This document shows, piece by piece, positions 1,150 to 60,652 of a stretch of 64,000 nt of DNA (positions are counted from its first letter, which is position 1; every line of letters starts with the position of its first letter). Position numbers and translations under genes: made by a program. This stretch comes from an uncultured Gemmatimonadales bacterium (GTDB lineage: Bacteria > Gemmatimonadota > Gemmatimonadetes > Gemmatimonadales > Gemmatimonadaceae): contig CAVPLX010000003.1 of the NCBI GenBank assembly GCA_963706505.1, positions 31,569 to 95,568 on the forward strand, given 5' to 3'. The notes beneath the pieces were generated by a model that did not search any database, had not been told where the DNA came from, and was given only the letters and a program-made list of their open reading frames with translations.

Positions 1150-3822
1150 ATGAATTCTGATCTGACCGGTAGGCTGCAAAAGGCACTCGAAGGGGCCTAC
1201 CTCGTCGACCGGGAGATAGGCGCCGGCGGCATGGCGACGGTGTATCTCGCCCGCGACCGCAAACATGACCGATCCGTTGCCGTCAAAGTCGTGCACCCGG
1301 AACTCGCCGCGGTACTGGGGCCCGAGAGATTCCTGCGCGAGATCGCCATCACCGCGCAACTCAATCATCCGCACATTCTGCCGCTCTTTGACTCCGGGCG
1401 GTCCGACGGGCTGCTCTACTATGTGATGCCGTACGTCACCGGCGAGTCACTCCGCGGCCGGCTCGAACGCGAACGGCAGTTGTCGGTCGAAGAAGCTCTT
1501 CGTATCACCGAAGGGGTCGCGTCAGCCCTCGATTACGCGCACCGGCACGGCGTCGTGCACAGGGACATCAAACCGGAAAACATCCTGCTGGCCGATGGTG
1601 CGGTGCTCGTCGCCGATTTTGGTGTCGCACTGGCGATCACGAACTCGACCGACCGGCGGATGACCGAGACCGGCCTGTCGCTCGGCACCCCGCAATACAT
1701 GTCCCCCGAACAATCGATGGGAGAACGCACCATCGACGGGCGCAGCGACATCTATTCGTTGTCATGCGTGCTCTACGAGATGTTGGCCGGCGAGCCGCCG
1801 TTCACGGGGCCGAGCTCTCAGGCCATCGTGGCCAAGATCCTGACCGAGGCGCCTCCACCTGTAACTGCGCAAAGACCGGCGACTCCCCCGTCAGTCGCGG
1901 AGGCCATCCGCCGTGGACTCGAGAAGATTCCGGCCGATCGGTTCGCCACGGCGAGCGACTTCGCTTCGGCACTCCGGGCGACCACAGCGCTTCGGTCCGA
2001 TACGCGCGACGTGACCCTCGGCCCAGCGGGCGCAATATCGGCCAGGCGAGTCGGACGTTGGCGAGCTCTTGCCATTTCCAGCGTGATCGTCGCGCTGGCG
2101 GCAATCGGTGTCGCAACCGCCGTATTTGTCGCGCGCGGTACCGGCCCTGAAACCACCTTCCAACTCGCGCGCCAGCTCACCTTCGACGGAACCGTGGCCC
2201 AGATCGCGATCTCCGACGACGGACGTTGGATCGCATACACGACGAACCAATGCAACGCGGACCATACCAGCTGCACCGGCGCGTTGCAGGTCCGGGAGGT
2301 CGATGGCACGCAGTCTGTCCGTATTCTGTCGTGGCCGTCGCTCGGCGAGCATGTGGCCTGGTCGCCCGACGGAGGGACGGTCCTGTTTACCGGGTCGCCC
2401 GACACCGGCCCGATTGGCCTGTACGCGACGAGCCGACTGGGCGGGTCGGTTCGACGCATCACATCCGGCGACAATCCAATGGCATACGCACCGGATGGTC
2501 AAACCGTCGCGGTGGCCGAGTCCCGGCCCCACGGCCAGTTGATGGTTCGATTCGACCTGCACACGTTCGCTCCGGTCGACAGCGTCGCTCTTCCAGGCGC
2601 CTACCGTATCGTCGGCCTCGCTCTGTCGCCACACCAGGATCTCATTGCAGCGGTTGGCTATCCACACGTCAAGTTTTCTACGGTCCTCCTGCTCTCGCAT
2701 GATGGGAAGGTCCTCGACACCGCGGCCCTGCACTACGATGCGTTCCAGGGGGCACGTGCGCCGATTCGATGGGAGCCGTCGGGGTCTGGAGTCGTGTTCT
2801 TCACTGTGCGGCCCGGCGTCGCAGACGATTTGATGCGACTCTCGGTCCGCGGCTCACGATTCGAATCGCATCGCGGCCAGATCGTATTGGGCCAGGTTCC
2901 GACGGGATACCAGGGAGAGTTCGACTTGTCGCGAAGCGGGCGCCTTGCGATCGTTGTCGTCCCGACGATCCATACCCTGTCGAGCCGGCCGCTTGATAAC
3001 AGCAGCACGACATGGACATCCGTTATGTCCCGGACCGGCTACCTGGCGTGGCCAGCCATCGCGCCCGATGGCAAGCGCATCGCGCTGACGGCCACCGACA
3101 ACCTCGGCGACAACATTTACCTGGTGCCCGCGCGCGGAGGCGAGCCACAGGCGATGACAGCCTCCCGCGGCACACGGGAGGACTTGCACTGGTCACCCGA
3201 TGGTCATCGCATGTCCTACTATGACGACGTCTCAGGGAGAGTTGGGATGGTCTCCATCAGCGACGCGGCCGAGCATCTCTCGCCACTGTTTGGAGAGTTC
3301 AACTGCTGGCTTGGGAATGATGTTTTGACGGTAGCCGAGACGCCGACGATGTTCGTGCTGCTCGACACGCTCGAGCGCCGGGTCGACAGCATTCGGGTTG
3401 CGGACTCCGTCGCCGTGGGGTCGCTGATGGAAGCCAATCCGTCGAACGGACAGATCGCGTATTGGTCTGATGCTGCCCACGGCACGGTCTGGATCGACAG
3501 CCACACGGGACGCACGATCGCAATCGTTCACTCGCCGCAGCGCGCCGACGTCATCGGATGGGACGGCGATGCGTCGGTGATCTCGGCGACCATGGCAACA
3601 AGAAGCTGGAATGTGAGCTCCCCGGCCGAGAGATTCGAGGGCCCCCAAAGGGCCATCGCTCGCGTGTCGCGCGATGGGGCGGTGACTCAACTCGCCGCCA
3701 CGCCCCCCACATGTCAGGCAGAAATCAGCGCGAGCGCCCCCGCCCATCTCGTCGTATGCACCGGCGCAGAGTCTCGGCCGGATGTCTGGCTTGCTGACGC
3801 ACCGGGCAAGTCGGGATGGTAA
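1150..3822 (+). CDS. serine/threonine protein kinase fused to a TolB-like PD40 beta-propeller
   Basis: 890-aa ORF. Hanks kinase motifs are present: GAGGMATVYLA, VAVK, HRDIKPENILL, DFGVA, GTPQYMSPEQ. One TM segment (WRALAISSVIVALAAIGVATAVFV) is followed by repeated WSPDG/APDG PD40 motifs. Confidence 0.9.
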   Translation: MNSDLTGRLQKALEGAYLVDREIGAGGMATVYLARDRKHDRSVAVKVVHPELAAVLGPERFLREIAITAQLNHPHILPLFDSGRSDGLLYYVMPYVTGESLRGRLERERQLSVEEALRITEGVASALDYAHRHGVVHRDIKPENILLADGAVLVADFGVALAITNSTDRRMTETGLSLGTPQYMSPEQSMGERTIDGRSDIYSLSCVLYEMLAGEPPFTGPSSQAIVAKILTEAPPPVTAQRPATPPSVAEAIRRGLEKIPADRFATASDFASALRATTALRSDTRDVTLGPAGAISARRVGRWRALAISSVIVALAAIGVATAVFVARGTGPETTFQLARQLTFDGTVAQIAISDDGRWIAYTTNQCNADHTSCTGALQVREVDGTQSVRILSWPSLGEHVAWSPDGGTVLFTGSPDTGPIGLYATSRLGGSVRRITSGDNPMAYAPDGQTVAVAESRPHGQLMVRFDLHTFAPVDSVALPGAYRIVGLALSPHQDLIAAVGYPHVKFSTVLLLSHDGKVLDTAALHYDAFQGARAPIRWEPSGSGVVFFTVRPGVADDLMRLSVRGSRFESHRGQIVLGQVPTGYQGEFDLSRSGRLAIVVVPTIHTLSSRPLDNSSTTWTSVMSRTGYLAWPAIAPDGKRIALTATDNLGDNIYLVPARGGEPQAMTASRGTREDLHWSPDGHRMSYYDDVSGRVGMVSISDAAEHLSPLFGEFNCWLGNDVLTVAETPTMFVLLDTLERRVDSIRVADSVAVGSLMEANPSNGQIAYWSDAAHGTVWIDSHTGRTIAIVHSPQRADVIGWDGDASVISATMATRSWNVSSPAERFEGPQRAIARVSRDGAVTQLAATPPTCQAEISASAPAHLVVCTGAESRPDVWLADAPGKSGW

Positions 3823-3931
3823 TGATGCTGGTGCAATACCGGTTGGAACGGTTAGTGTTTGCTCGCTCGCTCACGCCATCCCGGCTCTCGCTTCCTGATG
3901 GCTGGGAACTACCCTGCGGAGGTACCTCGCC

Positions 3932-4472
3932 ATGATGCGCTCAATCTCCCTGCTGTCGATTGCCGCCTTGCTCGGCGCGGCCCCTGCGAATCCCAGTGCC
4001 CCCACCCCCACATTGGCGGTGGCGGCGGACCGGCAGATCTGGGCACAAGTCATTGGTTACGTCACAGCGGCGGCCGAGCAAATGCCTGATTCGAGCTACG
4101 CGTACCACCCCGTGCCGTCGGTACGTACCTTCGGCCAGCTCATCGCGCACATCGCCGGATCGCAGCACATGTTCTGCGCCGCTGCCCTCGGGGACAAGAC
4201 GACCGCCGAGGACGACATCGAGAAAACCACGACGGCGAAGGCCGCACTGGTGACGGCACTCAAGGCCTCCACGGAGTACTGTCAGAAAGCGTACCTGATG
4301 ACCGACGCCGAGGCGCTGAAGCGGGAGACCAAGCTGTTCGGCAGAGAGCAGACAGCCATTCTGGGCACTGCTCGCGAACACGTCGCACGACGATGAGCAC
4401 TACGGCAACATCGTCACCTACATGCGCACCCTCGGCATGGTGCCGCCGTCGAGCCAGCCGCAGGGACGTTAG
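3932..4472 (+). pseudogene. DinB-family protein, one frame change near the 3' end in this sequence
   Basis: GGAGG precedes ATG 3932, followed by a signal-like N-terminus. ORF 3932..4396 ends prematurely (..[12 protein letters not shown]). The +1 frame continues ..[38 protein letters not shown] (stop 4470-4472), which is the expected DinB C-terminal His helix. Confidence 0.75.
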
Positions 4473-4480
4473 CGGCGCGC

Positions 4481-4873
4481 TTACACCAATTCGACGCGCG
4501 CGCGATGCCCGGGTGACGCCGCAAGGCGCCGGTCGCGCGTCAGGAGCGGCGCGTCCAGCGCTTCTGCGAGCGCGACGTACATCGCGTCATACGCGGTGAG
4601 GTTGCTCCGCAATTCCCAGACTCGCGGGAGCAGGACTCGATGGGGATATCGGCGCACGGGAAAGTCGGCGAGATCGGCGAGCGCTGCGCGTCCGCGCGCC
4701 TGTCCTATCTCGCCGGCCGCCGCATAGCGGCGAATGACCTGAGCGACCTCGACGTCGAGCAAATGGGGCGCGTGCAGGGTTTCTCGAGCATCGAATAACC
4801 ACCGTTCGACGGATTCCGCCGCCGGGGTCCCCAGCAGCGCCTCGATCAGCGCCGACGCGTCGACAACGATCAC
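4481..4873 (-). CDS. vapC: type II toxin, PIN-domain ribonuclease VapC
   Basis: 130 aa, (M)IVVDASALIEALLG... PIN N-terminal Asp motif. The GTG start overlaps the upstream antitoxin stop (GTGA at 4870-4873). Confidence 0.85.
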   Translation of the reverse strand: MIVVDASALIEALLGTPAAESVERWLFDARETLHAPHLLDVEVAQVIRRYAAAGEIGQARGRAALADLADFPVRRYPHRVLLPRVWELRSNLTAYDAMYVALAEALDAPLLTRDRRLAASPGHRARVELV

Positions 4874-58218: not shown

Positions 58219-58583
58219 CTAGGCGGCGGCCAGCGCGTCCCGCGCCCGGTCGGCGAGCAGCGTAAACGCCTGTGGATCGCGCACGGCGAGATCCGCCAGC
58301 AGTTTCCGGTCGACGTCGATGCCGGCCTTCTTCAGGCCGTTCATCAGCACGCTGTACGTCATCGCGTGCTGGTGGGCGGCCGCGTTGATGCGCGTGATCC
58401 AGAGGCGCCGGAAATCGCGCTTCTTGTTCTTGCGATCGCGGTAGGCATAGCGCCAGCCGCGCTCGACAGTCTCCTTGGCGGCTTTCCACAGCTTGCGACC
58501 GGCCGCCGTACGCACCACGGGCGGCCTTCATGATCTGCTTCTTGCGCTTCAGGCGCGCGACGTTCGATCTTGACGCGTGGCAT
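58219..58583 (-). pseudogene. rplT: 50S ribosomal protein L20, two frame changes near the 5' end
   Basis: MPRVK (frame 1, ATG 58583), [24 protein letters not shown] (frame 3) and [40 protein letters not shown].. (ORF 58219..58518). Confidence 0.85.
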
Positions 58584-58592
58584 TGGTCGCTC

Positions 58593-58790
58593 CTACGCCT
58601 GGATCAGGCGCTTGATGTTCCGGGCTTCGCCAGGCGTCTTGATCGATCGTCGGACGCCGGAGATTCCGCTTCCGCTTCGCGGACTTCTTGGTGAGGATGT
58701 GGCTCTTGAAGGCCTTCATGCGGCGCACCTTGCCGCTCGCGGTGATGGAAAACCGCTTCTTCGCCCCTTGTGGGTCTTCATCTTCGGCAT
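58593..58790 (-). pseudogene. rpmI: 50S ribosomal protein L35, two frame changes
   Basis: ATG 58790 gives MPKMKTHKG, then [39 protein letters not shown] in the next frame, then ..NIKRLIQA* (TAG 58593-58595). Not visible in the ORF track because the pieces are short. Confidence 0.8.
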
Positions 58791-58845
58791 GCTGATATCC
58801 GTCCCGTCATGCGGCACCGGCATCTCGGCGTTCGCCGTAGTTGGT

Positions 58846-59432
58846 TCATTTCCGAGGCGGCCGGTAGGCCGCACCCGCACACATTGCGCTGCGTGATCCC
58901 GCTCGGCCCGCCCGAACTTCGGGGGTGAGGATCATGATCATCGACTTGCCTTCCAGCTTCGTCGGGCTTTCGATCTTCGCCACATCCGCCAGCGTCGTTG
59001 CGACCCGGTCGACCACTTCACGCCCCAGCTCCGGGTGCGCGATCTGCCGGCCGCGAAACATCATCGTGACTTTGACCTTGTTGCCATCCTGCAGGAATTC
59101 ACGCGCGTGGCGGGTCTTCGTCTCGAAGTCGTGGTCCTCGATCCCCGGCCGGTACTTCACTTCCTTCAGGTGAATCACGTGCTGCTTCTTCTTGGCCTGG
59201 CGCGCCATCTTCGCCTGCTCGAACTTGAACTTCCCGTAGTCCATGATGCGGACCACGGGAGGGCGTCGCCATCGGCGCGACTTCGACCAGATCGAGCCCC
59301 TGGTCCATCGGCCGCCGCCAACGCTGCTTCCACATCCATGATCCCCATCTGACTCCCGTCGGCAGCGATCACCCGCAAAGGACTGATGCGGATCTGCCTG
59401 TTGACGCGCACTCGCTTCGTGGTGTCCTGGAT
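58846..59432 (-). pseudogene. infC: translation initiation factor IF-3, two frame changes; probable AUC start
   Basis: ..NRQIRISPLRVIAADGSQMGIMDVEAALAAA (ORF 59175..59411), GLDLVEVAPMATP (ORF 59099..59335), and PVVRIMDYGKFKFEQAKMARQAKKKQH...KSMIMILTP (ORF 58846..59574). GGGGGAGG lies 8 nt upstream of the in-frame ATC at 59432. Confidence 0.85.
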
Positions 59433-59480
59433 AGCGCCTGCCTCCCCCTGAGTGAACAGCCCGAATACGCCTCGCCGCCA

Positions 59481-59517
59481 AACAACAAAAAACGCGGACC
59501 CAATAGGAGCCCGCGCT
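59481..59517 (-). terminator. intrinsic terminator ~50 nt upstream of infC
   Basis: Minus strand CGCGGGCUC-CUAUU-GGGUCCGCG (9-bp stem with two G-U pairs) followed by UUUUUUGUUGUUU. Confidence 0.6.
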
Positions 59518-59644
59518 TGCGACCGCAGCCCTAGCCGGCGGCGCTCGCATTCGACGTGAACTCCTGCAGCACACCGGTCGAATACCCGACGCGGCGGCTA
59601 GAGGGTGAGCCCCTGCAGGGCTACTTAGCGTATTGTCTCACACC

Positions 59645-59673
59645 AACTTATGCCCCTTGCCGCCGTGCGTCAA
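59645..59673 (-). promoter_or_regulatory. sigma70-like promoter (TTGACG-17 nt-TAAGTT) driving a ~150-nt leader or small RNA toward infC
   Basis: -35 at 59668-59673 and -10 at 59645-59650 on the minus strand, in an otherwise gene-free 325-nt spacer. Confidence 0.45.
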
Positions 59674-59705
59674 GATGACGCGTCCTGCAGGCGGATACCT
59701 ACTTC

Positions 59706-59741
59706 GTCGAGCAGGTCGTCGACCAGGTCGTCGACCAGGTC
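59706..59741. repeat. three tandem 12-nt units (GTCGAGCAGGTC GTCGACCAGGTC GTCGACCAGGTC)
   Basis: Read directly from the sequence. It lies 16 nt downstream of the MBL-gene stop and 33 nt upstream of the -35 box above. Confidence 0.8.
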
Positions 59742-59757
59742 GTCACCCGGATCGTGA

Positions 59758-60652
59758 TCAGCCCGATCGGCCGGATGGCGTACTGACCACCCCGTAGCTC
59801 TTGCCGTCGTAGCCGAGCTCGGCCCACGACACGGTCGGGTCATGTCCGAAAAAGAGTCGCCACTCCTCGGCCAGGGCACGTGCCAGGATCCGCCGCTTCG
59901 TTTCCAGGGTCACCAGTGGCTCCACGTCGTACCCCATGATCCACGGGAGCGGCAGATGCGCCGCCGTCGGCACCAGATCGCCCAGCACGATCGCCCGGGC
60001 GCCGTCACTCTCCAGTAGCACACTCTGGTGAAACGGCGTGTGACCCGGTGTCGGAATGGCCGTGATCCCGGGAACGATCTGCCGCTCACCCTCCACGAAG
60101 TCGAATCGTCCCGCCTCGAACACGGGAACGAAATTGCGGGCGAAATAGCTCGCCGCGGTCCGCTCGTTCGTGTGGGTCGCATAGTGGTATTCCCCACCCT
60201 GCACCACGTATCGCGCCCTCGGAAACGAGAGCCGCACCTCGCCACGATCATCGCGGTACGTGTTGCCGCCGGCGTGATCGAAGTGGAGGTGCGTGTCGAT
60301 CACGATCGCGATGTCGTCCGGCGTGTACCCCGCCGCGCGCAGCCCATCCTCGAGCATCGTCCGGCCGTTCTCACCCTCGTTCTCGATCCCGTAGATGTCC
60401 TGGAACTTGCGGTCTTCCTTGTTGCCCGATCCCGTCTCGATGAGGATCAGCCCGGCGTCGTGCTCGATCACGAGGCACCGCATCCCGAGCGAGATGCGAT
60501 TCCTCGGGATCGGCCGGCATGCGCCGCTCCCACAGCACCTTGGGCACCACGCCGAACATGGCGCCGCCGTCGAGATGCTGGGCCCCCGACTGGATCACGT
60601 GAACGGTCCAGCCGCCGAATTGCTGGCGCTCGTGCAGTGGCCCGATCGTCAT
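59758..60652 (-). pseudogene. MBL-fold metallo-hydrolase, one frame change
   Basis: The N-terminus MTIGPLHERQQFGGWTVHVIQSG..GGAMFGVVPKVLWERRMPADPE is the tail of ORF 60371..62035. The continuation NRISLGMRCLVIEHDAGLILIETG.., THLHFDHAGG and PTPGHTPFH is ORF 59758..60483. Confidence 0.75.

Follow-up and report, generated by a model that had tools for sequence, protein, structure and literature searches.

What does a promoter, followed at once by a structured RNA and a strong intrinsic terminator, do directly in front of the essential gene infC? The question is raised by a spacer in the window, i.e., the whole stretch of 64,000 nucleotides from an uncultured Gemmatimonadales bacterium that was analysed here. 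On its minus strand, all three elements are found between a metallo-beta-lactamase (MBL)-fold gene and infC (Table 1). An initial annotation of this DNA had proposed either an attenuator leader of the L20/IF3 type or an independent small RNA.

The copy in the window has defects of its own. infC is spread over three frames, with changes near 59300 and 59255, and rplT has its MPRVK start in one frame and the remainder in another. These changes look like indel errors of the assembly rather than decay of essential genes; the source assembly consists of 3 contigs and its marker completeness is only 66 %. Because of the broken frames and this completeness, the analysis was based on relatives and not on this copy alone.

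Table 1. Features of the spacer upstream of infC and of its surroundings, in positions of the window.
Feature	Position	Strand	Remarks
MBL-fold gene	59758-60483	-	stop at 59758
Tandem repeats	59704-59759		three 12-nt units with GTCGAC, just 5' of the -35 hexamer
-35 hexamer TTGACG	59668..59673	-	TTGnnn at the same position in 76/76 relatives
-10 hexamer TAAGTT	59645..59650	-	17-nt spacer to the -35 hexamer
ACAA block, 5'-terminal	59633..59636	-	invariant or near-invariant columns
AAG (adenosine pair) just 5' of P1	59624..59626	-	invariant in 84/84 distinct sequences
P1 hairpin AGCCC-UGCAG-GGGCU	59608..59622	-	structure conserved, sequence variable
C-ACC junction and P2 5' strand, CACCCUCUAGCC	59596..59607	-	CACC invariant in 84/84
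Distal variable P2, hairpin and short 3' bulge	59572..59595	-	from per-sequence folds; 5/5 pairs covary
P2 3' strand UGCUGCAGGAGU (UGCUGCAGGAGUUC)	59558..59571	-	overlaps the antiterminator 5' strand GGAGUUC (59564-59558)
P3 hairpin, variable sequence	59519..59548	-	enclosed by the antiterminator; hairpin predicted here in every relative
Intrinsic terminator hairpin GCGCGGGCUCC-UAUU-GGGUCCGCG	59492..59516	-	5' arm GCGGGCUCC (59514-59506) is the antiterminator 3' strand
U tract UUUUUUGUUGUUU	59480..59492	-	from sequence reading and terminator scan
infC Shine-Dalgarno GGGGGAGG	59441-59448	-	from sequence reading; 3' of the terminator
infC start ATC, in-frame, non-canonical	59430-59432	-	ATC/ATT here in nearly all of 82 relatives
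infC, rpmI and rplT (region)	58487-59318	-	infC spread over three frames, rplT over two

The promoter TTGACG-17-TAAGTT, as originally described, is confirmed: both hexamers are read on the minus strand and their spacing is kept in 76 of 76 relatives, where 16-18 nt separate TTGnnn from TAnnnT (17 nt in 57 of the 76). From this promoter to the ACAA block there are 6-12 nt, again in all 76, and 8 nt in 53 of them. Since the spacing is fixed throughout, the RNA very probably starts 1-2 bases 5' of ACAA, and in the window transcription would begin near 59638, about 7 nt past TAAGTT. A consensus promoter scan of the site did not list the pair because TAAGTT agrees with TATAAT at only three of six positions. 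The tandem repeats that lie just 5' of the -35 hexamer are not conserved in the relatives aligned, and a weak SAM-IV match (20.4 bits, E 1.2) is their spurious product. At the other end, the Shine-Dalgarno sequence of infC does lie downstream of the terminator, as had been stated. One relative, L062, has ACG at the aligned start position, and the first codons differ in L027 and L031.

The MBL-fold gene is a conserved neighbour across the order, standing upstream of infC on its strand in 80 of 83 loci. Its distance to the leader ranges from 10 to 2041 nt and the leader stays with infC. In some genomes the gene ends only 10-35 nt from the leader, so that the leader promoter overlaps its 3' end.

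How widely the leader occurs was followed with a covariance model, R1, built from 75 sequences. Of 151 genomes from the phylum, 50 have a match to R1, and each of these has exactly one. The window's own family, Gemmatimonadaceae, accounts for matches in 30 of its 31 sampled genomes, a sister family for 16 of 71, and three further families for 1/2, 1/1 and 1/1; in the remaining seven Gemmatimonadota families R1 matched none of 44 genomes. With the speed filters off, further real matches were obtained upstream of infC in genomes first scored negative. The stretch is present in all nine genomes of the same genus. In 87 of 87 aligned loci it shares the strand of infC and precedes it by 25-60 nt, and rplT follows 890-1058 nt downstream in each of the 76 loci long enough to be informative. 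No second copy and no other context was seen in the R1-matched genomes, all of which have one copy, before infC. An alignment of 76 distinct infC upstream regions from the family shows a fixed order of blocks and three hairpins that are freely variable in sequence.

A pattern scan covering one genome per species, for about 185,000 species, gave almost only Gemmatimonadota among the matches listed. Ten of the matches listed carry no such label; one of these, L153, from a metagenome-assembled genome classified only as 'bacterium', is a true member (109.7 bits), and the other nine are chance matches, one of them inside a coding gene. In the literature searched, no description of an infC leader from Gemmatimonadota was found.

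One Gemmatimonadaceae genome of 2.5 Mb lacks the leader (L264, G141:C3:256288-256958). Very shortly after its TTGACG promoter comes CCGCGCUUUGUUUU, apparently all that is left of the terminator (its 3' arm and U tract), and next a Shine-Dalgarno sequence and an ATT start. Judging by these apparent remnants, the locus is a natural deletion of the sensor.

The 166-nt RNA is more stable than its dinucleotide shuffles (z = -3.19), none of 200 being as good. In its conserved fold, P1 is followed by P2, which is long and irregular, then by P3, which varies, and finally by the terminator. Across 84 distinct sequences, in a model-based alignment that is fitted to, and hence leans towards, the structure of the model, 93.1 % of the cells in the four helices are paired compared with 35-47 % when the 3' partners are slid, and 20 of 26 pairs change on both sides; no shuffle reaches these values. 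P1 is the AGCCC-UGCAG-GGGCU hairpin that had been noticed in the single sequence. All five of its pairs covary, with changes on both sides and 98.3 % of cells paired, and its covariation is equally plain in a structure-blind MAFFT alignment. P2 is made up of CCU/AGG, a C-C mismatch, UGGC/GCUG, the distal variable hairpin and a short bulge on the 3' side, and nearly all species agree on this arrangement when the segment from CACCC to GGAGU is folded one sequence at a time. Its base extends by an A-U and a C-G pair if one adenosine (column 181) is bulged. This adenosine, the most variable base of the block, is replaced or missing in places, as a bulged base would be; in a sister family that does not have it, ACCCU/AGGGU is a continuous helix.

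The leader is therefore conserved in relatives and its helices covary, though the fold differs from the one drawn in the initial annotation, of which the promoter, the terminator, the structured RNA as such and P1 stand and two long-range helices do not. Neither the closing helix CCC(UC)UAGCCG/CGGCUAGGG nor the inner helix UUCGAC/GUCGAA is kept in relatives, and the first of them (CCCUCUAGCCG/CGGCUAGGG) competes for CCCUCUAGCC with the conserved, covarying P2. Three other candidates were discarded as well: a closing helix CGCU/AGCG from a first RNAalifold run is inconsistent in the wider set, a short GCU/AGU helix that would close a three-way junction shows no covariation by eye, and a hairpin with ACAA in its loop occurs in only a few sequences.

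The intrinsic terminator, already described as strong, was found independently by a terminator scan at 59518-59490 (12 pairs and a T tract). Its 5' arm, GCGGACUCC, is almost constant in the family, while P1, distal P2 and P3 vary freely. Within this arm, GGACUCC is complementary to GGAGUYC, which consists of the last bases of the P2 3' strand and two more. In this antiterminator pairing 94 % of cells pair, compared with 26-61 % in slid registers. True covariation amounts to 3 pairs and 6 cells and is not above that of shuffles, being scarce because both strands are conserved; 5 of 5 aligned sequences with GCGA in the terminator arm have U opposite.

In predicted folds of transcripts that end after the terminator 5' arm, at least 5 of the 7 antiterminator pairs are present in the minimum-energy structure of 62 of 81 sequences, and the base of P2, CCU/AGG, is then open. 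In the full-length RNA, the terminator belongs to the minimum-energy fold in 61 of the 81. When terminator and antiterminator are each forced, the two states differ by 3.8 +/- 5.6 kcal/mol. From the pairing and the truncated folds it follows that the P2 base and the antiterminator are mutually exclusive and that terminator and antiterminator are nearly balanced. As far as sequence and predicted folds tell, the anatomy of the leader is that of an attenuator with read-through as its default.

Control of translation was considered separately. The idea that the freed CCCUCU acts as an anti-Shine-Dalgarno in the read-through form was dropped, the Shine-Dalgarno sequence being paired with this segment in only 6 of 74 forced-antiterminator folds. 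In many relatives (e.g., L077, L054, and L066) a short CCUC-loop-GAGG hairpin stands between the terminator and the infC start and sequesters the Shine-Dalgarno sequence. Whether terminator or antiterminator is formed, the pairing is predicted in 57 of 74 sequences, and it may represent a separate translational control.

If the leader is a switch, what does it sense? The best indication comes from the P1/P2 junction, in which AAG, C-ACC and GG.GU are invariant in all 84 distinct sequences. The L20 leader of Rfam (RF00558), its consensus taken from a Clostridial example (40 bits), reads AAG-a-[AGAAGC ACCC GCUUCU]-C-[gCC U...CA GGc] and aligns with AAG-Y-[RG...CY]-C-[ACC CU...CA GG(A)GU] of our motif. 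In B. subtilis, L20 footprints at the junction of helix 1 and helix 2, adjoining two conserved adenosines, and the site is regarded as imitating the 23S helix 40/41 junction (PMC1865079, PMC3849166). An adenosine pair together with two G-C pairs in succession is common to L20 sites more generally (PMC7247131). By analogy, the P1/P2 junction of the leader would be an L20 binding site. A descriptor of the junction occurs 55 times in 7.7 Mb of the source genome, both strands included, which puts its chance occurrence at about 1e-3 per leader. Of 20 distant Gemmatimonadota that the first R1 scan had missed, 15 have it ahead of infC.

Mimicry of the organism's own rRNA is inexact, since its 23S rRNA has GAGA and not GAAGA before helix 40 in this error-prone assembly. 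Short likenesses to other parts of 23S rRNA (GCUAAGG, GCUCAC, and GUGCUGC) were judged to be due to chance, as the topology differs and the P1 sequence is variable. The 23S rRNA gene at L094 (G000:C1:319170-323124) spans 3955 nt compared with the 2925 positions of the model and has two insertions in domain IV, at about 3485-4160 and 4195-4498 of the locus. The first holds an open frame of 160 amino acids and matches a group I intron weakly (24.8 bits, E 5.6e-4); the second is of about 300 nt.

The relation to RF00558 has two sides. With a curated gathering threshold of 58.7 bits, the family model gives this leader 14.7 bits (E 6.7 genome-wide); this is the best match in the whole genome, and it was rejected as proof of membership, not being reproduced in 40 family relatives, none of whose leaders matched at E <= 10. 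In the reverse direction, R1 on the Clostridial L20 leader reaches a non-significant 4.5 bits. By model score the leader is for these reasons not a member of RF00558, and on this stretch all Rfam 15 families stay well short of their thresholds, with only weak, terminator-driven matches besides that of RF00558. In three other Gemmatimonadota families, RF00558 has full-length matches, below its threshold, on the infC leaders. L280 is matched by RF00558 with 32.1 bits (E 0.002) and by R1 with E 5e-5; L281 has 29.8 bits (E 0.0074) and a weak R1 match, L283 has 23.7 bits, and L279 is matched by R1, the Gemmatimonadales model. L281, from a sister family, has a helix 1 of the Firmicutes type, AGAAGC...GCUUCU, together with an antiterminator pairing of the Bacillus type, GCCCAC/GUGGGC.

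Since sequences like L280 bridge R1 and RF00558, the Gemmatimonadales leader is read as a diverged L20 leader. We read its sequence as that of a leader in which helix 1 lost its conserved loop, helix 2 grew and became conserved, and the antiterminator moved to the foot of helix 2. The remark in the initial annotation that the sequence does not look like the known motif is thus borne out at the level of the Rfam model (14.7 vs 58.7 bits), and the suggestion of an unrelated analogue gives way to a diverged relative that bridging sequences connect. The leader represents a known type of regulatory RNA, rewired and specific to its lineage, and is absent from Rfam 15.

Our main reading, to which we assign a probability of roughly two in three, is that the infC-rpmI-rplT mRNA begins with this element as its leader, and that the leader attenuates transcription in response to a protein, as a diverged and rewired member of the L20-leader kind. 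That an L20/IF3-type attenuator leader precedes this operon had been put forward at the outset, and the proposal is now supported by position, by the terminator and antiterminator, by the operator junction and by the bridge to RF00558. As the nascent RNA emerges, P1 would form and then P2, and the operator would be their junction, AAG-N-[P1]-C-[ACC...GGU]. By default, once P3 and the terminator 5' arm have been made, GGAGUYC would leave P2 and pair with GGACUCC, and with this antiterminator in place transcription would proceed into infC, rpmI and rplT. When L20, which rplT encodes, is free in excess of its sites on 23S rRNA, it would bind to the P1/P2 junction and lock the base of P2; the antiterminator could then not form, the terminator would fold and transcription would stop at the U tract. 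The AUC or AUU start of infC probably adds the usual translational self-control by IF3 as a second loop.

The closest known counterpart is the L20 leader of B. subtilis and other Firmicutes (RF00558; Choonee et al. 2007, PMC1865079; Deiorio-Haggar et al. 2013, PMC3849166), which is likewise located upstream of infC-rpmI-rplT. In both, a conserved AA(G) precedes helix 1, which a C joins to helix 2 (AAGNRG..CYC-NCC..GGN), such that AAGaAG..CUCgCC..CAGGc of the model consensus aligns with AAG, C-ACC and GG.GU of the leader. A non-conserved (fourth) stem before the terminator (PMC3849166) is paralleled by P3, and both end in an intrinsic terminator with antiterminator read-through as the default, which for our leader is deduced from sequence and folding only. 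The two differ in how the switch is built. Helix 1 is variable in sequence and loop in the Gemmatimonadota leader, whereas in Firmicutes it is a conserved domain of 26 nt; the P1 loop varies in length and sequence among relatives, and the loop-based switch feature of Firmicutes is not found in it. Helix 2, in contrast to that of Firmicutes, is an irregular helix of some length with a conserved sequence (CCCUCUGGCC / GUGCUGCAGGAGU), and its 3' foot provides the antiterminator, for which Firmicutes use the helix 1 loop. Moreover, the terminator 5' arm is conserved in sequence, whereas the terminator of Firmicutes covaries freely (PMC3849166), and the conserved 5' ACAA is an addition.

Other L20 sites were compared as well. 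The translational operator of E. coli (Guillier et al. 2002, 2005, as cited in PMC3616713) is located between infC and rpmI and represses translation with no terminator involved, one of its sites being a long-range pseudoknot. Shared with the Gemmatimonadota leader are the regulation of L35 and L20, the presumed ligand L20, and a rigorously conserved adenosine pair beside a helix, as a mimic of 23S helices 40/41. Rfam scans revealed no sequence likeness to this operator. A candidate L20 leader from Deltaproteobacteria (Eckert and Weinberg 2020, PMC7247131) is also lineage-restricted and, on a scaffold of its own, retains the AA pair and the two consecutive G-C pairs, but precedes the L20 gene alone and has another fold. 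The autoregulation of E. coli IF3 through the non-canonical infC start AUU, as summarised in PMC1865079, finds its counterpart in the ATC/ATT start of nearly all relatives, but is a separate translational loop outside the leader RNA.

The ligand could also be another product of the operon, the P1/P2 junction being the site of IF3 or of L35. As infC, rpmI and rplT are never apart in the loci seen, gene context cannot separate these two from L20: the leader stands directly before infC and the context fits any of the three. For IF3 one may add that CACCCUCU resembles the 3' end of 16S rRNA, which we take to be near the site of IF3 action. To our knowledge, however, no leader that binds IF3 or L35 has been described, and the conserved AUC/AUU start already accounts for self-control by IF3. 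Furthermore, the bridging sequences tie the leader to RF00558, and its invariant junction matches an operator on which L20 binding has been footprinted (PMC1865079), so that we regard sensing of IF3 or L35 as unlikely. A small-molecule riboswitch, responding for example to a growth-rate signal and resembling the L20 operator by chance, would also have the sensor, antiterminator and terminator seen here, and would agree with the failure of any known Rfam family to reach its threshold. Yet with both the P1 loop and the distal part of P2 variable, there are few conserved unpaired bases from which a ligand pocket could be built, and the bases that are conserved are those of the protein operator of a validated family, whose model matches leaders in sister families. 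In addition, riboswitch classes usually control several genes, whereas this motif occurs only before infC-rpmI-rplT. We consider such a riboswitch very improbable.

The leader might, on the other hand, sense nothing at all and be an unregulated structured 5' UTR, its terminator serving mainly the transcripts of the MBL gene, or else give rise to a stable sRNA of about 150 nt that acts in trans. A terminated product of 150 nt would exist in any case, and in 80 of 83 loci the MBL gene precedes the motif on its strand, sometimes by only 10-35 nt. Against a terminator of the MBL gene stands the position-conserved promoter that separates this gene from the leader in 76 of 76 cases; the 25-60 nt between leader and infC are kept even in loci that lack the gene or have it at a distance of 300-2041 nt. 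Nor does a simple terminator need an invariant junction, a conserved 5' arm or the complementary GGAGUYC. The motif is present in one copy per genome and in no other context, and the independent sRNA that had been offered as an alternative is not supported for a conserved cis-leader tied to infC in 87 of 87 loci. We hold both forms of this explanation to be quite improbable.

Leaders that bind ribosomal proteins are a classic case of RNA mimicry of rRNA, reinvented in different lineages. With the attenuator reading preferred here, an L20-type leader is now at hand for a poorly studied phylum with cultured members (Gemmatimonas aurantiaca and G. phototrophica), and the L20-leader family of Rfam extends far outside Firmicutes in forms that its model cannot see. 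There is also a natural series with the operator fixed and the terminator/antiterminator logic rebuilt, which is useful for the study of switch evolution and of minimal L20 recognition. For annotation, the leader explains the presence of a terminator ahead of an essential gene, and a new Rfam model, or a widened one, could be started from the alignment. A further proposal, which we advance tentatively and think rather doubtful as yet, is that the leader is a re-engineered L20 sensor in which the switch element passed from the helix 1 loop to the helix 2 foot with the junction fixed, intermediates being preserved in families f8, f9 and f12. In such a sensor, L20 or a second factor may also be contacted by the 5' ACAA and by the internal loop of P2, both conserved, in a manner not seen in Bacillus. 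If the switch element did move in this way, the phylum records the stepwise rebuilding of an expression platform around an unchanged operator.
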